Source: an uncultured Acidobacteriota bacterium (GTDB lineage: Bacteria; Acidobacteriota; Thermoanaerobaculia; UBA5066; Gp7-AA6). From it: a stretch of 64,000 nucleotides of DNA. Below, in pieces: positions 7,222-40,869 of this stretch. The stretch lies in assembly GCA_963763535.1 (NCBI GenBank), contig CAVXOX010000008.1, forward strand, positions 963,975-1,027,974, written 5' to 3'. The number at the start of each line of letters is the position of its first letter. Position 1 is the first letter of the stretch. Under the pieces are notes generated by a model. It worked only from the letters and a program-made list of their open reading frames with translations, made no database searches and was not told where the DNA came from. A program made the translations under genes and the position numbers.

Positions 7222-8217
7222 TTAAGCGGTCCGGCCGGGGCCGCTTCGGAGGTCGGCGAGTGCCATTCCGACCCACTTGCCGGTCATCTCCTTGCGCCAG
7301 AGGAACGAGAAGTCCGTGTTGTCCATCGGCCGGGAGACCACGGCCGCCGCCGCGGCCGCCTCGGCGATCGAGGCGTCGTCGAGGGTGCGGCCGGCGAGCG
7401 CGGCCTCGGCCCCGGACGCGCGCACCGGCGCGGAGGCGACGGCCCCGAGGACGATGCGGGACTCGGCCACCCGCTCCCCTTCCCGGCGGACGGCCGCGCC
7501 GACCGCGAGGACCGGGAAGTCGAAGCTCCCCCGCCGGCGCAGCTTCCGGTAGGACGCCGTCCAGCCGTCCGGCGCGGGCACGCGGATCTCCGTCAGGAGC
7601 TCGTCCGGCCGCTTCGTCAGGTAATGGATGCCGTCGTTGGCATAGAGCTCCTCGAGCGAAAGCTCCCGCTCTCCCTCCGCCGACGCGAGCACCGCCCGGG
7701 CCCGAAGGGCGATCAGGATGGGCACCGAGTCGGCCGACTGCACGGCGAGGCATCGCGGCGAGCCGGGCGCGACCCAGCAGATCGTGCCGTCCTTCTTCAT
7801 GCAGAAGTCGATCGCCTGGCGCCACTCGTAGTTCTGGTCGTAGTAGTTGCAGCGCGTGTCGAGGAGGACGTTGCCGCCGAGCGTCCCCATGTTGCGGAGC
7901 GGCGGCGTCGAGATCTCCGCGACGGCATGGACGAGCGCGGGATGGAGGCGGCGGGCCTTCCGGTGGCTCTCGATCTCCGAGAGCGGAACGGCCGCGCCGA
8001 TCGAGAGGCCGTCCGCGCCGGCGCGCAGCCGGGCGAGGCTCGGAATGCGCGAGAGGCCGATCACCGCCTTCGGGGTCTGCTGGCGGCGCTTCATGTTCGG
8101 GTAGAGATCCGTGCCGCCCGCGACGAACGCGGCGTCCTCGCCCTCCCCCGACTTGATGCGCAGGGCCTCCTTCACGCTCGTCGGCGCGAAGTAGCGGAAC
8201 CTGGGGAGTCGCATCAT
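7222..8217 (-). CDS. Molybdo-hydroxylase FAD-binding (medium) subunit, CoxM/XdhB family
   Basis: FAD-binding PCMH domain (AGGTDLYP, GTLGGNV) and a CO-dehydrogenase-flavoprotein C-terminal domain. Third gene of the S-L-M operon. Confidence 0.85.
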   Translation of the reverse strand: MMRLPRFRYFAPTSVKEALRIKSGEGEDAAFVAGGTDLYPNMKRRQQTPKAVIGLSRIPSLARLRAGADGLSIGAAVPLSEIESHRKARRLHPALVHAVAEISTPPLRNMGTLGGNVLLDTRCNYYDQNYEWRQAIDFCMKKDGTICWVAPGSPRCLAVQSADSVPILIALRARAVLASAEGERELSLEELYANDGIHYLTKRPDELLTEIRVPAPDGWTASYRKLRRRGSFDFPVLAVGAAVRREGERVAESRIVLGAVASAPVRASGAEAALAGRTLDDASIAEAAAAAAVVSRPMDNTDFSFLWRKEMTGKWVGMALADLRSGPGRTA

Positions 8218-8237: not shown

Positions 8238-8395
8238 TGTCATCCCGAGGCCCATAGGGCCGAGGGATCCCTTTAGAAGCCGCAGCCGGACTAAGAAAGG
8301 GATCCCTCGTCGCTCCGCTCCTCGGGATGACAAGACAACCTGCGCTCCTCGGGATGACGAAACGGCCAGCGCGCTCCTCGGCATGACCGGGACAG
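8238..8395. mobile_element. MITE-like double-palindrome element, copy A, with three tandem copies of its right terminus
   Basis: GTCATCCCGAGG...CGAGGGATCCCTTT...AAAGGGATCCCTCG...CTCGGGATGAC, followed by a reiterated cgctcctcgggatgac. Sits in the coxL-coxM intergenic region. Confidence 0.6.
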
Positions 8396-8397
8396 AT

Positions 8398-10836
8398 TCA
8401 CCGCACTCCTCCCGCCGACGTCACCGGCGCGTCCTCGGCTTTGCCGTCGCCGCCCTCCTCGGGCGTGCGCACGTGGATCGGCTCGGGATACGGAACCGTC
8501 GGGAAGCGCTCCGGGCCGACGCGAGCGGGCTTGCCCAGCGCCTTCGCCTTCAGCGCCTTGCGGACCTTCTCCGGCGTGACCGGGATCTCGTCGACGCGCA
8601 CGCCGACGGCGTCGTAGACGGCGTTGGCGACGGCCGGCGGAATCGGCAGGAGCGGCCCCTGCCCGACCTCCTTCGCGCCGTACGGCCCGTTGGGGTCCGG
8701 GTCCTCGACGAGGAAGGTCTCGACCTCGGGCATCTCGAGCGTCGTCGGGCTCTTGTACTCGAGCACCGACGGGAACTTGTGGACGACGTTCCGGTTGGCG
8801 TCCGTGCGGTACGCCATCTCCTCCATCATCGCCTCGCCGAGTCCCATGTACACGGAACCCTCGACCTGGCCCATCACGAGCGCCGCGTTGATGCACTTGC
8901 CGACGTCGTGCGCGATCCAGATCTTCGGCACCGTGTAGATGCCGGTCTCCGGGTCGACCTCGACCTCGACGACCGCCGCGGAGTACGAGTACGCCGGCGA
9001 CGGCCCCACGCCGGCGCCGCGGTACCGGCCCGCCGACGGCGGCGGCCGATAGTGACCGACCGTGCCGAGCGTGCCGTGCAGCGACTCCCCCGCGACGGCC
9101 GCGTCGGCGAAGCTCATCCCCTTCCCGGGATCCTCGACGTCGAAGACGCGCCCCTCGGCGAAGCCGATCCGCTCCCGCGGCGCGCCGAGCTTCGGCGCGA
9201 CGGCGTCGAGGATCAGCTCCTTCGCGCGCTCGGCCGCCTGGATCGCGGCGTTGCCGGTCATCAGCGTGACGCGCGAGGAGTACGAGCCGAGGTCGACCGG
9301 CGTCAGGTCCGTGTCGCCGGTGACGATGCGGATGTCGAGCGGGTCGACGCCGAGGATCTCGGCGACGATCGCCGCGAGGATCGTGTCCGAGCCCTGGCCG
9401 ATCTCGGTCGAGCCGCAGAAGACCGTCACGCCGCCGCCGCGGTCGACCTTCAGCTGCACGCCCGACTGCGGCATCTGGTTCCAGTAGATCGGCAGGCCCG
9501 CGCCCGTCAGGTAGGACGAGCACGCGATCCCGAGGCCGCGGCCGAGCGGGAGCTTCCCGCGCCGCTCCCTCCAGCCCGAGGCCGCGACGACCTTGTCGAT
9601 GCAGGCCCCGAGGCCCATCGAGCCGACGCGCAGGTAGTTCGCGGTCAGCGAGTTCGCGGGCTGCAGGTGCTCGCGCCGGATCGCGGCCGGGTCGAGACCG
9701 AGGTCGCACGCGATGCGGTCGAGCTCCGCCTCGAGGGCGAACCGCGGCTGCGGCGTGCCGTGGCCGCGCTTGGGCCCGCACGGCGGCTTGTTCGTGAAGA
9801 CGCGCGCGCCCTCGAACTTGTACGTCGGGACGCGGTACGTGACCGTCTGCAGCGCTCCCGTGTAGTAGGTCGAGGCGACCCCGTACGAGCCGTAGCCGCC
9901 GCCGTCGAGCGCCGTCTGGAAGTGGAGCGCGGTGATCGCGCCGTCCTTCTTCACGCCGGTCCGCACCCGCATCAGGGTCGGGTGACGGCCCCGGTGGCAG
10001 TAGAAGACCTCCTCGCGCGTCAGGCAGATCTTGACGGGCCGGCCCGTGACGCGCGAGAGGTGCGCGACGACGATCTCGTGGTTGAAGACGTCCGACTTGC
10101 CGCCGAAGCCGCCGCCGTTCGGCGTCGCGATCACGCGGATGCGGGACGCCGGCATCGCGAGCACCTTCGCGAGCGCCCGGTGCACGTAGTGCGGCGTCTG
10201 CGTCGAGGACCAGAGCGTGAGCTTCCCGTCGGGACCGAAGTCGGCGACCGCAGCGTGCTGCTCGAGGGCGAGATGGGTGTTGCCTTCGTAGAAGTAGACG
10301 TTGTCGTAGATGCGGTCCGCCCGGGCGAAACCCTCGTCGAGGTCGCCGAACTGCATCGCGACGAGCTTGTGGATGTTTCCGGCGTCGCCGTAGTCGTGAA
10401 TGGGCACGGCCGCCGGGGCGAGCCCCTCGTCGATCGTGCCGACCGGAGGGAGCGGCTCGTACTCGACCCGGACGAGATCGAGCGCGTCGAAGGCCGCGTC
10501 CTCGCTGACGGCGGCGATCGCCGCGACCGGATCGCCGACGTAGCGCACGCGGTCCTGGCAGAGCGCGTGCTCGTCCTGCGAGACGGGCAGGATGCCGAAG
10601 GGGACGGGCAGGTCCTTTCCCGTCGCCACCACGACGACGCCGGGCGCGGCGAGCGCCGCCGAGACGTCGATCGAGAGGATCCTCGCGTGCGCGACCTTCG
10701 CGCGCAGGAGCTTGCAGTGCAGCATCCGCGGCAGCATCAGGTCGTCGGCGAACTTCGTCTGCCCGGTGACCTTCGCCGCGCCATCGACCTTCGTGAACGG
10801 ACGGCCGACGATGCGTGTGGGCTTGCGGGCGGTCAC
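8398..10836 (-). CDS. Molybdopterin-binding large subunit of a xanthine dehydrogenase / CO dehydrogenase family molybdo-hydroxylase (CoxL-like)
   Basis: GTG at 10836 (frame-checked against the track ORF) preceded by a GGAG RBS. N-terminus TARKPTRIVGRPFTKVDGAAKVTGQTKFADD matches the aldehyde-oxidase/xanthine-DH a/b-hammerhead domain. The C-terminal Moco domain is about 810 aa. In-frame with coxS because no stop intervenes. Confidence 0.85.
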   Translation of the reverse strand: MTARKPTRIVGRPFTKVDGAAKVTGQTKFADDLMLPRMLHCKLLRAKVAHARILSIDVSAALAAPGVVVVATGKDLPVPFGILPVSQDEHALCQDRVRYVGDPVAAIAAVSEDAAFDALDLVRVEYEPLPPVGTIDEGLAPAAVPIHDYGDAGNIHKLVAMQFGDLDEGFARADRIYDNVYFYEGNTHLALEQHAAVADFGPDGKLTLWSSTQTPHYVHRALAKVLAMPASRIRVIATPNGGGFGGKSDVFNHEIVVAHLSRVTGRPVKICLTREEVFYCHRGRHPTLMRVRTGVKKDGAITALHFQTALDGGGYGSYGVASTYYTGALQTVTYRVPTYKFEGARVFTNKPPCGPKRGHGTPQPRFALEAELDRIACDLGLDPAAIRREHLQPANSLTANYLRVGSMGLGACIDKVVAASGWRERRGKLPLGRGLGIACSSYLTGAGLPIYWNQMPQSGVQLKVDRGGGVTVFCGSTEIGQGSDTILAAIVAEILGVDPLDIRIVTGDTDLTPVDLGSYSSRVTLMTGNAAIQAAERAKELILDAVAPKLGAPRERIGFAEGRVFDVEDPGKGMSFADAAVAGESLHGTLGTVGHYRPPPSAGRYRGAGVGPSPAYSYSAAVVEVEVDPETGIYTVPKIWIAHDVGKCINAALVMGQVEGSVYMGLGEAMMEEMAYRTDANRNVVHKFPSVLEYKSPTTLEMPEVETFLVEDPDPNGPYGAKEVGQGPLLPIPPAVANAVYDAVGVRVDEIPVTPEKVRKALKAKALGKPARVGPERFPTVPYPEPIHVRTPEEGGDGKAEDAPVTSAGGVR

Positions 10837-10865
10837 TCGCGTTTCTCCGATTCCTGACCCCGTGC

Positions 10866-11012
10866 GGGGGCAAGCCCCTTCCCGACATTGCCCTCGACCC
10901 GACCCGGCGGGGGCAAGCCCCGCCCCTACATTGCCCTCGACCTGACCGCGGCGGGGGCAAGCCCCGCCCCTGCGTTGCCCTCGACCTGTAGGGGCGGCCC
11001 TTGCGGCCGCCC
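10866..11012. repeat. BIME-like cluster: three tandem 43-44-bp units (GGGGGCAAGCCCCGCCCCTACATTGCCCTCGACCTGACCGCGGC) plus one inverted REP (TGTAGGGGCGGCCCTTGCGGCCGCCC)
   Basis: Unit starts at 10866, 10909 and 10953. The period is not a multiple of 3. Each unit is the reverse complement of a degenerate REP core. Confidence 0.7.
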
Positions 11013-11088
11013 GTTGCCGGGGTGTGAAGGCAGCAGCCCGCTCTCGTCGAAGTCGTATCCGTACAGCGACTCCCGGCGCGGCTGCGGC

Positions 11089-11598
11089 CTCCTCCCCCCG
11101 CATCCACGCGGCCGCGAGCTCGACGGCCTCGAAGATCTTCACGTACCCGGTGCAGCGGCACAGGTTTCCCGCGAGCGCCTGGCGGATCTCCGGCAGCGTC
11201 GGCTTCGGGTTCGCCTCGAGGAGCGCCTTCGCCGTCAGCAGGAACCCCGGCGTGCAGTAGCCGCACTGCGCGGCGCCGAGCTCCGAGAACGCCTTCTGCA
11301 GCGGATGGAGTCCCTCCGGTCCGGCCATGCCCTCGACCGTCTCGACGCGCCGGCCCTCGCACTCGAGCCCGAGCACGAGGCAGGAGAGGACGGGCTTTCC
11401 ATCGACGAGCACGGCGCACGTGCCGCATTCGCCGAGCTCGCAGCCGTGCTTCGTGCCGGTCAGCGCGAGGTCCTCGCGGAGCACCTCGAGGAGCGTCTTG
11501 TGCGGCTCGAAAGCCGCCTCGACGCGCTCGCCGTTGACTGTCAGGGAGACGAGGGCCTTCGACCGCTCAGCCGCCGAATTTTGCCTGCGACGCGCCAT
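11089..11598 (-). CDS. [2Fe-2S]-binding small subunit of the molybdo-hydroxylase (CoxS-like); the 3' boundary is only an estimate because there is no in-frame stop
   Basis: Ferredoxin-like CELGECGTC plus a four-helix-bundle 2Fe-2S pair (CGYCTPG, CRCTGY). The domain ends near WMRGEE, about aa 170. The track reports a single 1066-aa ORF 8398..11598 reading through the repeat cluster. Confidence 0.7.
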
Positions 11599-19023: not shown

Positions 19024-19149
19024 GCCGCTCCCGATGACGTCGTTGACCGACAGCGCGACGATCTCCCAGCGGGAGACGGCGCGCAGGAAGCCGGGCGACT
19101 TCGGTTCGGCGGAGCTCAGGGTGGCGGCATTCTAGATCAGCGTTTTGGT

Positions 19150-19235
19150 GTCATCCCGAGCGCGGCGAGGGATCCCTTCTCAAGTTATGGTGCGTGCTTC
19201 AAAGGGGTCCCTCGGGTCGTCGCCCTCGGGATGAC
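19150..19235. mobile_element. MITE-like double-palindrome element, copy B, in the divergent promoter region between the permease and ychF
   Basis: gtcatcccgagcgcggcgagggatccc...aaaggggtccctcgggtcgtcgccctcgggatgac. Confidence 0.6.
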
Positions 19236-19261
19236 AGCGGAGCTATATACTCCCGCGCCCA

Positions 19262-20365
19262 ATGCTCCGCGCCGGCATCGTCGGTCTCCCGAACGTCGGG
19301 AAATCCACGCTCTTCAACGCCCTCACGCGCACGCGCAAGGCGGAGGCCGCGAACTACCCGTTCTGCACGATCGAGCCGAACGTCGGCGTCGTCACCGTGC
19401 CCGACTCCCGGCTCGAGCCGCTCGCGAAGATCTCGAAGTCCGAGCGCATCGTGCCCGCCACGATCGAGTTCGTCGACATCGCCGGGCTCGTCAAGGGCGC
19501 CTCGCAGGGGGAAGGTCTCGGCAACAAGTTCCTCCAGCACATCCGCGAGGTGGACGCGATCGTCGAGGTCGTCCGCTGCTTCGAGGATCGGGACGTCGTC
19601 CACGTCGCGGGCGCGCTCGACCCGGTCGCCGACATCGAGACGATCCAGACGGAGCTCGTGCTCGCCGACCTCGAGACCCTGTCGCGGCAGAAGGAGAAGC
19701 TCGAGAAGACCGCGAAGGGCGGCGACAAGGAGGCGAAGGAGGCGCTCCCCGTGGCGGAGAAGCTCGTCGCGCACCTCGACGGCGGACGGCGCGCGTTCAC
19801 GGCGCCGCTGTCGGACGAAGAGAAGGCGGCCGCGCGGCGTTTCTTCCTCCTGACGATGAAGCCGATGCTCTTCGCCTGCAACGTCGCCGAGGGAGAGCTT
19901 GCGACGGCCGACGATTCGCCCCACGTGAAGGCGGTGCGCCACTTCGCACAGACGCACCTCGGCACCGAGGCCGTGGTCGTCTCGGCCGCGATCGAGGCCG
20001 AGCTCGCCGAGCTGCCGGACGCGGAGGCGAAGGAATACCTCGGACATCTCGGCGTGGCGGACTCGGGCGTCTCGTCGCTCATCCGCGCCGCGTACCACCT
20101 CCTCGGCCTGCGCACGTACCTGACGGCCGGCGAGAAGGAGACGCGCGCGTGGACGATCCACGCCGGCGACACGGCCCCGGCCGCGGCGGGAGTGATCCAC
20201 TCCGACTTCGAGAAGGGGTTCATCAAGGCCGAGACGGTCTCGTACGACGACCTGATCGCCGCCGGCGCGATGAACGCCGCGAGGGAGAAGGGTCTCGTGC
20301 GCCAGGAGGGCAAGGAGTACGTGGTTCGCGACGGCGACGTGATCCTGTTCAAGTTCAACGTGTAG
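19262..20365 (+). CDS. ychF: Ribosome-binding ATPase YchF (Obg-family GTPase fold)
   Basis: G1 GLPNVGKST, G3 DIAGLV, a TGS-like C-terminus (GFIKAETVSYDDL), 367 aa, intact. Confidence 0.9.
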   Translation: MLRAGIVGLPNVGKSTLFNALTRTRKAEAANYPFCTIEPNVGVVTVPDSRLEPLAKISKSERIVPATIEFVDIAGLVKGASQGEGLGNKFLQHIREVDAIVEVVRCFEDRDVVHVAGALDPVADIETIQTELVLADLETLSRQKEKLEKTAKGGDKEAKEALPVAEKLVAHLDGGRRAFTAPLSDEEKAAARRFFLLTMKPMLFACNVAEGELATADDSPHVKAVRHFAQTHLGTEAVVVSAAIEAELAELPDAEAKEYLGHLGVADSGVSSLIRAAYHLLGLRTYLTAGEKETRAWTIHAGDTAPAAAGVIHSDFEKGFIKAETVSYDDLIAAGAMNAAREKGLVRQEGKEYVVRDGDVILFKFNV

Positions 20366-21189: not shown

Positions 21190-21854
21190 TCAGGGGCGCG
21201 GCGAGGAGGGCGAGGGAAGCGGCGAGGGCGGCGGCGCCGGCGCCTCGACGCGGCGCAGCGTCCGCGTCATCACCGGCTCCAGACGGCCGCGTTCGCCCTC
21301 GCTCCACGTGATCGTCCACTGGTCCTGCCCGAGCTCCTTCCAGACGGCGCGGACCGCCCGGCGCTTCCCCGTGCGCGCATCCTCGCCGCGAAACACGAGA
21401 TCGCCGCCCTCGAATCGCCCCGTCAGGTGCAGTACGCCCGGGAACGCGCCGTGGATCTCCGAATAGTCGTAGGTGCGCCGCGAGGGGTCCCACGCGACGA
21501 CGAGGAGCGCCGTCACGCGGCCCATGGGGTTGTGGGCGTCGTCGTCGCCGACGACCGAGAAGGAGCCCGGTCCCCTGCGGAACGTCAGCGTGCCCCGGCC
21601 GCCCGGTCCCGGCCGGCCCTCGTATGCCCCGCGCTTGTAGCGCTCCGGCCGGCTCCAGGTCTCCTCGAACGCCCACGCACCGAGGACCGCGTCGAGTTTG
21701 CGCATCTCGGCCGCCGGCGCCTCGAAACGGACGGCGTCCTCGACTCGCTCGTCGTCGTCGACGGCCGGAGAAGGCGTCGGGGTCCTCGCCGGCGCCGGGC
21801 GCGGCGGGGCCGCCGACAGGACGAGCGCGAGCGCCGCCGCGAGCGCCTGCGGCG

Positions 21855-21858
<4 letters not shown>
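21190..21858 (-). CDS. Secreted DUF1579-like protein
   Basis: ATG at 21858 overlaps the fbp stop (ATGA). Signal peptide MTPQALAAALALVLSAAPP and an Ala/Pro-rich C-tail. Confidence 0.45.
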
Positions 21859-22857
<999 letters not shown>

Positions 22858-22868
22858 CGTCGCGAAGG

Positions 22869-23357
22869 TTACTTCTGCTTGGCGATCCGCCAGCGGCCGG
22901 TGGAGGCCGTTCCCTCGCTCCCCTGCGGCGACGTCGTGAAGGTGCCCTCGATCGTGTCGCCGGAGCGGCGCCCCACGAAGGTGGTCACGACCTGGCAGTT
23001 GCACGACGGGTCGCGGTACGGGTCCATGGTCCCGCGCAGCGTCCCTCCCGTCGCGCTGACGAAGTTGATGTTGAGGATCTGCGGCGCCCCGCGCATCGGG
23101 TCGTCGGCCGTCGGCGCCCCCTCCTTCGGCTTCATCAGGACGTCGCCGTGCGCGACCTTGTCGCCCGACTTCAGCTCGAAGACGATCGACCCCGACCGTC
23201 CGGTTTCGGTGCTCGAGTATTCGCCGACCCAGTGGCCCGCGAGAGACGAGACGTCGCCGCCCTCCACGGGAACCGGAGGCGCGGGATTCTGGGACGCGCA
23301 GCTCCCGGCGAAGAGCGCCGCGACGAAGATTGTCGAAAGCGTCCGGCGGTCGACCAT
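22869..23357 (-). CDS. Hypothetical lipoprotein
   Basis: M at 23357, signal peptide plus lipobox (LFAGSC), no recognised domain. Confidence 0.4.
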   Translation of the reverse strand: MVDRRTLSTIFVAALFAGSCASQNPAPPVPVEGGDVSSLAGHWVGEYSSTETGRSGSIVFELKSGDKVAHGDVLMKPKEGAPTADDPMRGAPQILNINFVSATGGTLRGTMDPYRDPSCNCQVVTTFVGRRSGDTIEGTFTTSPQGSEGTASTGRWRIAKQK

Positions 23358-26146: not shown

Positions 26147-26689
26147 ATGCAGCGACGCGACCTGTTTCGCTCCGCCGCCCGCGCGGGGCTCGCGCTCGGG
26201 CTCGCCGCGGCCGGCCGGCCGCTCATCGCGCTGCCCGGCGCGGACAAGACGGAGATCGACGACATCGGACTCATGAACACGGCGCTCGCGCTCGAGCACC
26301 AGGCGATCTGGGCCTACGGGCTCGCGGGCCGGAGCGGCCTCCTGTCCGAGAAAGCGAAGGAGGTCGGGCTCGCATTCCAGGGAAGCCACGAGCTCCACCG
26401 CGACCTGCTCGTCGACGCCGTGCGTCGCAAGGGCGGCGCGCCGGTCGACGCGAAAAAGGAGTACGTGTTTTCCGTGCCGCTCGCCAACGAGAAGGACGTG
26501 CTCGAGCTCGCGTTCACCCTCGAGGTCGGCGCGGCGCGCGCGTACCTCTCGGTGATCGACCGGTTCCACGATCGCGCGCTCTCCGCCTCTTCGGCGAAGA
26601 TCCTCTCCGACGAGGTGCTGCACGCGACGGTGCTCCGGAGCGTGCTCGGACGCGACGTGGTTCCGACGTTCGGCCTGATCGAGAATTGA
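26147..26689 (+). CDS. Tat-secreted ferritin-like domain protein (DUF4439-like)
   Basis: Twin-arginine signal MQRRDLFRSAARAGLALGLAAAG; ferritin-like helices. Confidence 0.55.
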   Translation: MQRRDLFRSAARAGLALGLAAAGRPLIALPGADKTEIDDIGLMNTALALEHQAIWAYGLAGRSGLLSEKAKEVGLAFQGSHELHRDLLVDAVRRKGGAPVDAKKEYVFSVPLANEKDVLELAFTLEVGAARAYLSVIDRFHDRALSASSAKILSDEVLHATVLRSVLGRDVVPTFGLIEN

Positions 26690-26711: not shown

Positions 26712-26861
26712 CGGTCATCCCGAGGGCGTCGAGCCCGAGGGATCCCTTTCGCAGCCGCACTGAGACATCAAAGGGATCCCTCGCTGCGCTCGGGATGACA
26801 AGAGGCGTGCAGCCGTATCCAGATTTGAAAGGGATCCCTGGCGACGCTCCGCTCGGGATGA
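26712..26861. mobile_element. MITE-like element, copy C: one full copy plus one right-half copy in tandem
   Basis: ggtcatcccgagggcgtcgagcccgagggatccctttcgcagccgcactgagacatcaaagggatccctcgctgcgctcgggatgac, then gaaagggatccctggcgacgctccgctcgggatgac. Confidence 0.6.
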
Positions 26862-26873
26862 CGCGAAGGAGAC

Positions 26874-38680: not shown

Positions 38681-39664
38681 ATGAAGCGGCTCGCTCGCCG
38701 GGCCGCCGCCGTGGGCGGCGCGGCCGCCGCGGCCTACGTCGGCGGGTCGTATCTGCTCGCGCGAGTCGTCGCGCGGCGGCTCATCTCCCCAACCGGCTTC
38801 GGGCCGGCGCCGGCGCGGCACGAAGACCTCCTCGCCGCGCTGGAATCGAGCGCGACGGTGGTCGCGAACCTGAAGCACCGCGGCAGCGCGCGCCTCCCCG
38901 TCGAGCTCTCGGCCACCTTCGCATCGCCGGGCGAGCCCGAGACGCGGCCGACCATCATCTTTCTCCACGGCAAGGGCGGCGACGCGAGCGAGTGGGAATC
39001 CGACGCGCTCCGCGCGCTGCGTCTCGGCTACAACGTCCTGCTGCCCGACCTGCGCGGCCACGGCCGCAGCGGCGGGACGTTCTTCACCCTCGGCTTTCTC
39101 GAGAAGGAGGACCTCGCGCTGACGGTCGCCGCGGCGCGGGACGGCTTCGGCGTCGATCCGGAGCGTCTCGGCATCCACTCCTGCTCGGCGGGATCGTCGG
39201 TGGCGCTCGAGTTCGCGGCCCATCGATCGGGTGTGCGCGCGATCTGGCTCGAGTCGCCGTTCGCGAGGCCCCGCGAGATGGCGCGGCACTACCTCTCGCG
39301 CGCGACCCGCCTGCCGCGCTGGCTCCTCGGCCTGACCTCCCACTGGGCGATCGCCCGTTCGCTGGCGGAGATCCGCGAGGCGCTCGGCGTCCCGCCCGGA
39401 GAGGCGGGCGGGCTCGACGCCGTGGACCCGATTCGCACCGCCACGCGGGTGACGGCGGCGGTACTGCTCGTGCACGGCGACGAGGACCGCATGGTGCCGC
39501 CGCGCTTCAACCACGAGCTCGCCGCGGTCCTTCCGCCGCGCAGCGCGATCTGGAACGTCGCGGGCGCCGGCCACTGCCATCACCCGGACGAGCCCGCCGT
39601 GGCGGCGAAGATCGCCTATGCGAAGAGGTGGCAGGAGTTCTTCACGACTTACCTGCCGGTGTAG
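38681..39664 (+). CDS. Alpha/beta-hydrolase fold protein (S9/dienelactone-hydrolase-like)
   Basis: Nucleophile elbow HSCSAGS, Asp (HGDEDRMV), His (AGHCHH); N-terminal TM/signal. Confidence 0.7.
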   Translation: MKRLARRAAAVGGAAAAAYVGGSYLLARVVARRLISPTGFGPAPARHEDLLAALESSATVVANLKHRGSARLPVELSATFASPGEPETRPTIIFLHGKGGDASEWESDALRALRLGYNVLLPDLRGHGRSGGTFFTLGFLEKEDLALTVAAARDGFGVDPERLGIHSCSAGSSVALEFAAHRSGVRAIWLESPFARPREMARHYLSRATRLPRWLLGLTSHWAIARSLAEIREALGVPPGEAGGLDAVDPIRTATRVTAAVLLVHGDEDRMVPPRFNHELAAVLPPRSAIWNVAGAGHCHHPDEPAVAAKIAYAKRWQEFFTTYLPV

Positions 39665-40869
39665 ACCGATTCCGCCTCACATCGACCGTTCTGCCCTTCA
39701 GCTGTCCGCACGCCGCTGACGCATCCGGTCCCTTGCTGCGCCGCACCGTGACGGTCACGTGCGCGTCGGCGAGGCGGCCGACGAAGCGGTCGATCACGTC
39801 CTCGGAGGGCCGCCGCAATTCCGGCAGGTAGGTCGGGTCCTCGTTCAACGGGATCACGTTGACCTTCACCGGGAGACCGCGCAGCAGGCGGGCGAGGCGG
39901 ACCGCGTCCTCCTCGCGATCGTTGACGCCGGCGATCAGGACGTACTCGACGAGGATCCGGCGCCGCGGCTCCAGCGGCCACGCGCGCATCGCGGCGAGGA
40001 GTCCCTCGAGCGGATAGGTCTTCGTGATCGGCATCAGCTTCTCGCGCGTCGCCTGGTCGGCGGCGTTCAGCGACACCGCGAGATTCGGGCGCCGCGGGAG
40101 CGCCGCGAACGTCGCGAACGCGGGCGTGATGCCGGAGGTCGACACGGTGACGCGGCGCGGCGGCACGAGCTCGAACAGGATCTCGAGCGCCGGGATCACG
40201 CCGTCGGGATCGAGGAACGGCTCCCCCATGCCCATGAAGACGACGCGCAGGCCGTCGAGGCCGCGCCGGGTCTCGACGAGAACGGCGCGGAGCTGCGCCA
40301 GGATCTCGCCGGCGGTGAGGTTCCGTCCGCCGCCGAGCCGACCGGTCACGCAGAAGACGCAGTCGACGGCGCAGCCGGTCTGCGAGGAGAGGCAGATCGT
40401 GAAGCGCGGGACGGGACTCATCCTTGTGCATCCCGAGGGCCGGCGGCCCGAGGGATCCCTTTCTGCGCCGCACTGTGACTCGGAAAGGGATCCCTCGCTA
40501 CGCTCGGGATGACGAGAGGGCGCCGGCCTCCCGCCTCGCGTCCTCGAACTCGTTCGCGGACGAGCGGGCCGCGTCGCCGGGCATGAACACCGCCTCGATG
40601 AGTGCGCCGTCGGTGAGCCGCAGGCCGAACTTGACGCTCCCGTCCGCCGAGGCGTCGCGGCGGACCACCTCGGGCAGGCGCAGCGGCATGGCCTCGGCGA
40701 GCCGCTCGCGCAGCGCGGCCGGCAGCTCCTTCATCGCGGCGTAGTCGGTGGTGCCGCGGCGATGGATCGCGTCGAACAGCTGGCGTCCGCGGTAGCGCGG
40801 GAGTCCCGACTCCACGGCGAACGCCTCCCACGCGGAGGGAGTGAGACCGAAGGGATCGCGCTCGCCCAT
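39642..40869 (-). pseudogene. rlmN: 23S rRNA/tRNA methyltransferase RlmN (radical SAM) interrupted by a MITE-like insertion
   Basis: N-terminal fragment (ORF 40498..40869) ends ...LTDGALIEAVFMPG then reads into the element to a stop. C-terminal fragment (39642..40421) begins ...PRFTICLSSQTGCAVDCVFCVTG (the CxxxCxxC cluster) in a different frame. The element lies exactly between the conserved FMP and T(L/I)C(V/L)SSQ motifs. Confidence 0.7.
40428..40513. mobile_element. MITE-like double-palindrome element, copy D, inside rlmN
   Basis: gcatcccgagggccggcggcccgagggatccctttctgcgccgcactgtgactcggaaagggatccctcgctacgctcgggatgac. Shares the gcagccgcactg(a/t)gac internal segment with copy C. Confidence 0.65.

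Follow-up and report, generated by a model that had tools for sequence, protein, structure and literature searches.

Probable head-to-head dimers of a CGTC/TGTC-tagged REP in an uncultured Acidobacteriota bacterium, with near-identical arms in more than 10 phyla

A survey of bacterial REPs (Di Nocera, De Gregorio, Rocco 2013, BMC Genomics 14:522; PMC3733652) distinguishes two superfamilies by their unpaired terminal tag, GTAG or CGTC. As set out in the text of that survey, the CGTC superfamily is made up of families CGTC-1 to CGTC-4 and includes Neisseria dRS3 and Rickettsia RPE-4/RPE-6; its tag is often TGTC (variants TGTC, CCTC), its 8-9-bp stems almost always start with A-T pairs, its loops are 4-5 nt long, and it has a 3-nt tail, CCA. 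According to the same text, CGTC REPs are mostly found as head-to-head (HH) dimers with spacers of 20-100 bp, often with complementary ends, and heterodimers are frequent. They are reported there from five phyla, with a preference for unidirectional and convergent intergenic spaces, some intragenic in-frame units (CGTC-1 encoding the peptides VIPAKAGI and DSRLRGND) and no associated transposase, and complex loops are described for some GTAG families. GTAG-tagged REPs and REPINs owe their mobility to RAYT tyrosine transposases (Nunvar 2010, PMC2817692; Bertels and Rainey 2011).

The DNA stretch analysed here, a 64-kb window from an uncultured Acidobacteriota bacterium, contains four copies (A to D; Table 1) of a repeat in which two inverted arms of ~25-35 nt flank a spacer of 30-45 bp. 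Compared with CGTC REPs as the survey text portrays them, these copies have the same YGTC tag, AT stem start, overall 8+5+8 geometry, HH heterodimers, type of spacer with complementary ends, in-frame intragenic copy and lack of a linked transposase. They differ from that portrayal in the conserved tandem G.A and GNA triloop of their arms, in a CYN tail instead of CCA, in the long self-complementary loop inserts of some arms, and in a reach beyond the five listed phyla, with arms near-identical between phyla. The likeness to REPINs is also close: two inverted REP hairpins yield a long hairpin of ~90 nt, singlets and clusters occur, no target-site duplication (TSD) is seen, and the tag-plus-hairpin architecture is of the kind recognised by HUH/Y1 enzymes. 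Unlike in REPINs and GTAG REPs, however, the tag is YGTC, and none of the 80 loci of one RAYT family had its gene flanked by these arms. REP and REPIN sequences are normally genus-specific, whereas the present arms are common to more than 10 phyla. Taken together, we think it probable that each locus is an HH dimer of a CGTC/TGTC-tagged REP, REPIN-like in organisation, gained and lost over time, and with no known transposase. The elements are best filed as a selfish or structural repeat, and not as a classical MITE or a terminator. This reading would account for the four odd intergenic or intragenic palindromes of the window as ordinary REP dimers, and would make the family a clean and very widespread example of CGTC-type REPs. 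Of the two labels offered in the original prediction, MITE-like or REP-type, the second is borne out by tagged hairpin doublets of polymorphic presence, and the first is not supported, as none of 136 copies has TSDs and no related autonomous IS was seen in the loci.

Table 1 Positions of the repeat copies, their parts and the reading frames around them in the 64-kb window
Feature	Position	Strand	Description
Copy A	8238-8332		HH dimer (tags outside); left arm 8238-8272, right arm 8300-8332
Copy A, left arm	8238-8272		Sub-hairpin GGCCC-ATA-GGGCC
Copy A, right arm	8300-8332		Long type, CGTCGCTCCGCTCCTCGGGATGACA
Copy A, second reiterated right terminus	8342-8359		gcgctcCTCGGGATGACg; tag and outer half-arm only
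Copy A, third reiterated right terminus	8371-8388		gcgctcCTCGGCATGACc; 1 mismatch
Copy A, context	8398-11598; 7222-8217	-; -	Gap between the stop of an XDH-like large-subunit gene and the start of a FAD-subunit gene
Copy B	19149-19236		HH dimer; between divergent amino-acid permease gene (-, start 19023) and ychF (+, start 19262)
Copy C	26713-26800		HH heterodimer; left arm sub-hairpin GGGC-GTCGA-GCCC, right arm short type
Copy C, context	26147-26689	+	Ferritin-like DUF4439 gene; convergent genes, copy C 24 nt past its stop
Copy C, extra right half	26809-26863		Spacer remnant, inner arm and long-type outer arm, CGTC tag
Copy D	40425-40514		HH heterodimer within rlmN, in the linker of N-terminal domain and radical-SAM core
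rlmN N-terminal ORF	40498-40869	-	RlmN_N domain, 123 aa; ends at TAG within copy D
rlmN radical-SAM ORF	39642-40421	-	259 aa; frame open upstream across entire copy D

All four loci originally predicted for the family were recovered, and the motif counts stand above shuffled sequence: GTCATCCCGAG (up to one mismatch) matches 12 times in the window (shuffles: mean 2.7, maximum 7), and GAGGGATCCCTTT (up to two mismatches) 9 times (mean 1.2, maximum 4). An arm-sequence profile found no further copies in the 64-kb window. The four copies align with a mean column identity of 75%, the conserved blocks being the outer and inner inverted pairs, and copies A, C, and D have their inner arms and spacer core in common. 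Some details of the first description hold with adjustments. The length of 95 bp is that of copy A, the other copies measuring 88-90 bp; the shared outer inverted termini are generally present but imperfect at the left end of copy D (TGTGCATCCCGAG), and the palindrome is usually one base longer than first described (TGTCATCCCGAG...CTCGGGATGACA); the inner inverted pair is a conserved block, with one mismatch per inner arm in copy B. Other details stand as proposed, namely the three right termini of copy A (at 8321-8331, 8348-8358, and, with 1 mismatch, 8377-8387), the loop segment common to copies C and D, which reads gccgcactg(a/t)gac, and the extra half-element of copy C. This half differs in arm type from the adjacent dimer and is therefore not a simple tandem duplication.

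Each of the four copies has a context of its own: an operon for copy A, the gap between divergent genes for copy B, that between convergent genes for copy C, and the interior of a gene for copy D. Copy A fills nearly all of a 180-nt gap between two minus-strand genes, its third right terminus ending 10 nt away from the stop codon of the upstream XDH-like gene, which encodes an Fe-S/molybdopterin subunit. Copy B is located immediately 5′ of a conserved TATACT box, and copy C also follows the DUF4439 gene's own hairpin. All four have their tags outside, as do all public pattern matches described below, for which this orientation was enforced by the search pattern; for the window it was not. Other phyla, too, have half-arms reiterated as in copy A (L033, L037, L048, L089, L092).

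Each arm consists of a 4-nt unpaired tag (TGTC or CGTC) followed by a hairpin, ATCCC-GA-GC-GNA-GC-GA-GGGAT, in which ATCCC and GGGAT form a 5-bp stem, followed by a tandem G.A/A.G mismatch and a GC/GC pair step and closed by a GNA triloop. In some arms a longer self-complementary insert takes the place of the loop. Across 274 arms from 137 elements among the matches listed, the tag was TGTC in 192 (70%), CGTC in 59 (21.5%), GGTC in 19, and AGTC in 4; the window arms carry TGTC (5), CGTC (3), GGTC (2), and one aberrant tag. Nearly half of the same listed arms (123/274) are of a short type, whose 5-nt loop is CGNAG in 101 of 123 with all four bases found at N, and the others carry inserts of 7-17 nt, partly self-complementary, that resemble the complex loops which the survey text describes for some GTAG families (PMC3733652). 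The inner half-arm in this set is CGAGGGAYC. The stem, ATCCCGAG(C)/(G)CGAGGGAT, begins with AT and fits a length of 8-9 bp, its positions 6-7 being the conserved G.A/A.G mismatch, and the tail past GGGAY is an invariant C followed by variable bases (TCC, TTG, TGG...) with no CCA consensus. Because of the tandem G.A mismatch in the stem and the CYN tail, the fit to the four CGTC families is not exact, and the arms possibly represent a new subfamily of CGTC/TGTC REP dimers, or may instead belong to one of the families CGTC-1 to CGTC-4. No mention of the arm sequence was found in the text of PMC3733652 or of later papers citing it, and literature searches with literal sequence strings returned chance primer matches only. 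The 11-nt “termini” make better sense as an arm's tag together with the outer half of its hairpin, rather than as terminal inverted repeats (TIRs) bound by a transposase.

DNA folds of single arms leave the tag unpaired and return the ATCCC/GGGAT stem, tandem G.A/A.G, GC/GC step, and G-N-A triloop. The DNA mini-hairpin d(GCGNAGC) is exceptionally stable. Since the nearest-neighbour energies of short-type single arms are no better than those of shuffles (z −0.4 to −1.0), the arm hairpin rests on comparison and on this known stability. Three window left arms carry perfect self-complementary inserts at the loop, those of copies A and C (Table 1) and a third, GGCC-GGC-GGCC, and their partners stay in the short or long form, as is likewise the case in L071, L112, and L011. 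An insert in one arm that is absent from its partner points to an arm-level hairpin. Entire copies fold into long hairpins on both strands (−49 to −60 kcal/mol, z −4.9 to −7.7). Among the matches listed, the spacer ends are complementary within an element at 5.8 of 10 positions, compared to 3.2 of 10 when partners are shuffled (maximum shuffle 3.6), with distinct end sequences in 93 of 104, and the Y (T/C) position of the inner arms is concordant between arms in 88 of 101 dimers. One long hairpin per element is thus also supported by the spacer ends and by the Y concordance. Given inverted arms and complementary spacer ends, the ~90-bp unit has two possible folds, a pair of small hairpins or a single long one.

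The family extends far beyond the window. When one genome per species was scanned with the pattern GTCATCCCGAG-N55-85-CTCGGGATGAC, in which only the outer 11 nt are fixed, the outer termini were located in at least 119 loci from more than 10 phyla. The matches listed include Acidobacteriota (Terriglobales, Thermoanaerobaculia), Verrucomicrobiota, Gemmatimonadota, Chloroflexota, Planctomycetota, Solirubrobacterales, Oligoflexales, Burkholderiales, Lysobacterales/Luteimonas, Bacteroidota, and Reyranella, Vineibacter, and other Alphaproteobacteria. Since cultured isolates (Luteimonas cucumeris, Reyranella sp., Vineibacter terrae, Spirosoma fluviale, and Flavobacterium sp.) and multi-Mb contigs are among them, mis-binning cannot account for this taxonomic breadth. 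The listed matches follow a common plan, (c)T-GTCATCCCGAG-CGNAG-CGAGGGAYC-[variable spacer]-GRTCCCTCG-CTNCG-CTCGGGATGAC-A(g), and their ~25-base arms are near-unchanged across soil bacteria of more than 10 phyla. The spacers are lineage-specific, with separate ones in Verrucomicrobial, Vineibacter/Reyranella, Terriglobales, and Thermoanaerobaculia copies; the spacer type of the window, CCCTTT...AAAGGG, was also seen in Thermoanaerobaculia and other Acidobacteriota (L011, L020, L026, L112, L118). A collection of 72,556 plasmids gave no match. In IMG/VR, 16 contigs classed as viral contain the arm (L208-L223), one of them (L223) with three copies.

Comparison with related Thermoanaerobaculia indicates that copies are gained and lost. 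The gap that holds copy C spans 185 bp in the window and 28 bp in L125 and L126 (FBPase 89% identical), and L127 (FBPase 81% identical) lacks the element at both the B and the C sites, with the coding sequence flanking these sites and the TATACT box before ychF conserved. Since copies B and C are missing from orthologous sites, copies evidently come and go. The intergenic flanks at the empty sites are highly diverged, and the exact insertion point is not definable from them. The original prediction had raised the prospect of conserved terminators with no insertion polymorphism; presence is in fact polymorphic at orthologous sites, and T-tails are absent. As a separate observation, the TATACT box that copy B abuts lies ~12 nt 5′ of the ychF start and is common to the window (19237-19264) and L127 (17647-17707), a position that suggests a very short leader or a leaderless ychF transcript.

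This polymorphism bears directly on the idea that the repeat is a site-specific functional signal maintained by selection at each locus, which would terminate or attenuate transcription, stabilise mRNA as a 3′ hairpin, or bind a protein. The idea draws on the very stable hairpins formed on both strands, on the location of copies A and C directly past stop codons, and on the survey text, in which E. coli REPs stabilise upstream mRNA and bind gyrase and CGTC REPs favour unidirectional and convergent spaces (PMC3733652). We nevertheless consider it unlikely, as the orthologous sites of copies B and C are empty in relatives, no two of the four copies share a context, and a terminator scan with inspection of the flanks found none of the four to be terminator-like or followed by a T tract. 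No Rfam family matched anywhere in the window at the gathering threshold, and a permissive search gave far-sub-threshold miRNA-hairpin matches only. A REP dimer may still have a secondary, opportunistic effect on neighbouring transcripts.

Another possibility is that the copies are ancient, immobile relics, the differences between genomes reflecting deletion and decay, and the reiterated termini arising through hairpin-driven slippage. We regard this as quite unlikely. The window copies are much alike in arms and spacer core but embedded in unrelated flanks, and four dimers occur in 64 kb here versus none in ~84 kb of relatives' DNA around rlmN and fbp, where no arm was detected. The lineage-specific spacer subfamilies further imply amplification within lineages. 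The case for relics rests instead on the argument of the 2013 survey, as worded in its text, that REPs are old components that have been massively lost (PMC3733652), and on the scatter at rlmN, which is compatible with one old insertion followed by several losses (in P0004 half of the element remains, and in L123 one arm has decayed); against it, the linker of another relative, L120, retains no residual similarity to the element.

The rlmN locus, where copy D is found, also illustrates how REP dimers of this type can be accommodated within a protein. On the minus strand, the frame reading RHPERSEGSLSESQCGAERDPSGRRPSGCTR is open across the entire copy D and continues into MSPVPRFTICLSSQ. The rlmN frame is shifted by 1 nt 5′ of copy D, at 40515-40545 (29 nt vs. 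28 nt in L122), and the N-terminal ORF, one base out of register, therefore stops at the TAG in the CGTAG loop. The closest RlmN proteins, which are all from Thermoanaerobaculia and so place the window in this group, are intact (381-391 aa), and all have a lineage-specific variable linker between NEFxDAR and RFT(I/V)CLSSQ. In three proteins of 404-417 aa (P0008, P0022, P0044) the linker holds the translated element (..RHPERSEGSLSS..KGIPRASGPRDDR..), P0010 has it translated in a different frame (VIPRARG..KGSLAAPGMT), and P0004 retains half of it. The L122 element is orthologous to copy D, with identical junction and arm types, a similar spacer, and an open frame; in L123 an element is present at rlmN with its arm types swapped, and the L120 linker showed no similarity to the element, its local score falling below the shuffle mean. 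The insert position falls between residues 113 and 117 of a solved RlmN, in the short segment that joins its two domains. The copy within the rlmN gene of L122 (gene at 1028-2266, P0008) additionally carries a reiterated, decayed right terminus (CTCGGGATGACA ggagagcgacc CTCCATGACA) that is absent from copy D and parallels copy A.

A second gene of the window is broken in a similar manner. The class-1 fructose-1,6-bisphosphatase gene fbp (21190-23004, minus strand) has a 1-nt frameshift near 22,050 (..GGGKL | RVLYECHP..), and once its frame is corrected, the product matches an intact 333-aa homologue (P0121) at 97% identity from end to end, which suggests an assembly indel error or a recent pseudogene. 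Because fbp is likewise shifted by 1 nt and its homologue is intact, we take the rlmN split as an assembly indel or a very recent mutation; the frameshift itself is possibly an assembly error, or else a mutation of very recent date. We considered copy D as a gene-disrupting insertion and rejected this, the element frame being open and continuous with the radical-SAM part and fbp being similarly shifted. We regard the rlmN split as due to a 1-nt shift beside a translated repeat, and not as an effect of the repeat.

Like the Rickettsia RPE (Ogata et al. 2000, cited in PMC3733652), copy D and its orthologues are translated in frame in a tolerant enzyme linker. By contrast, RPE-1 is longer and unrelated in sequence, and in the window a single copy out of four lies within a gene, with its frame broken by one base. 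The VIPAKAGI and DSRLRGND peptides given for CGTC-1 in PMC3733652 have their counterparts here in VIPSEARD and HPERSEGS. In-frame copies at rlmN thus show such repeats adding ~30 residues to protein linkers, and in-frame repeats lead to spurious HPERSEGS and VIPSEARD peptides in metagenome annotations.

We searched for a gene that could mobilise the dimers. A tblastn search with E. coli RayT across all element loci found decayed RAYT genes in L004 only, 1.5-2 kb from the element; these Y1-transposase remnants were classed nearest to REP-associated tyrosine transposases and do not adjoin an arm. HUH-motif ORFs occurred in 1 of 124 element loci, not adjacent to an arm. The cognate transposase that the original prediction proposed to look for did not emerge from a linkage test of one RAYT family either (alignment A3, seeded from the L004 pseudogenes and scanned in metagenomes): a genuine arm was present in 2 of 80 loci, about background, and other repeats flank these genes. 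The two loci are L204, with a left arm (ATCCCGAGCGAAGTCGAGGGATCT) within the RAYT coding match at ~1050, and L167, with a right arm at ~3354, ~360 bp downstream. When ORFs within 1.5 kb of the 137 elements among the matches listed were clustered, only ABC ATPases and sensor kinases recurred. No gene recurred between paired elements in the loci, where no autonomous relative with the same ends was seen, and ~0.9 Mb of loci contained neither a larger element with these ends nor a recurrent nearby transposase. In one locus (L109, 5839-6400, a Candidatus Sulfotelmatobacter MAG), a small GIY-YIG (COG2827-like) nuclease gene is placed exactly between two near-identical element copies. As a candidate mobiliser this nuclease was dropped, being found in 1 of ~125 element loci, with 3 of the 80 RAYT loci having one without arms.

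Insertion left no duplication at the sites compared. The TSDs expected of a MITE did not appear: direct repeats of 3-9 nt flank none of 136 copies among the matches listed, and shifting the assumed boundaries revealed none above chance. The sole flank signal in these 136 listed copies is a T at −1 and an A at +1, which extends the palindrome by 1-2 bases. A classical MITE, i.e., a deletion derivative of a DDE-transposase IS moved via 11-12-bp TIRs and generating TSDs, is thus very unlikely, since despite perfect 11-12-bp TG...CA inverted termini, small size, multiple dispersed copies, and presence/absence polymorphism, no direct repeat of at least 3 nt flanks any of these copies at any offset beyond chance, neither a larger element with these ends nor a recurrent transposase exists in the ~0.9 Mb of loci, the plasmid collection has no match, and the termini belong to an internally structured arm that is also found alone and reiterated. 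MITEs such as Correia/NEMIS, Nezha, and ERIC are nonetheless likewise small, bounded by inverted termini, dispersed between genes, and transcribed into hairpins; the present elements differ from them by having no TSD, no parent IS in the loci searched, and modular arms that also occur alone.

The common inner arms and spacer core of copies A, C, and D show that the element is non-coding repeated DNA copied as a whole dimer. It leaves no TSD and is tolerated in all kinds of gene surroundings, even in a protein linker, which simply takes up its translation. As for the route of spread, a single-stranded hairpin-plus-tag would be processed in trans by an unlinked HUH/Y1 enzyme, either RAYT or IS200-like, and we tentatively favour spread by such a single-strand-specific enzyme as the most likely of the possible routes. 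An HUH-type enzyme is preferred because of the tag-plus-hairpin design, the lack of duplications, and the reiterated half-arms. The local effect of a copy is probably that of a passive, stable hairpin, be it in the DNA or in the transcript.

A more speculative and, in our view, doubtful extension is that the ~25-nt arm, with its YGTC tag, ATCCC/GGGAT stem, tandem sheared G.A pair, and GNA mini-hairpin, serves as the recognition module of an unlinked single-stranded DNA enzyme that soil bacteria from more than 10 phyla have in common or pass to one another. Were this true, it would explain arms that are near-invariant between phyla alongside lineage-specific spacers, and CGTC-type REPs would gain the dedicated mobilisation system they are reported to lack. 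Handles for finding a recognising enzyme or host factor are provided by an arm that hardly varies from phylum to phylum, by a loop that keeps strictly to G-N-A, and by the recurrent reiteration of the tag-proximal half-arm.

The RAYT-like genes screened above have repeats of their own. This acidobacterial family (L128-L207, A3) is abundant, with proteins of 176-199 aa, and the 3′ ends of its genes enter another repeat in three reading frames (PAQAKLERGT / PPKRSLDGAP / PRPSGAWTGHP). Back-translation suggests that the core of this repeat is a GCGAAGC-centred hairpin (CCCAAGCGAAGCTTGGG) of the same design as the arms. Recurrent 14-mers flanking these loci are of a GGGTGCCCCGTCC type and a GCTTGAGTGGGGCA type. 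Repeats of a different kind are found toward the end of the window (~42,600-64,000), where at least five paralogous large genes encode right-handed beta-helix repeats, a TIG domain, and C-terminal SLH domains. This array contains many internal DNA repeats with a period of ~190 nt, and a TIG/SLH gene is also present in this neighbourhood in the relative L120.
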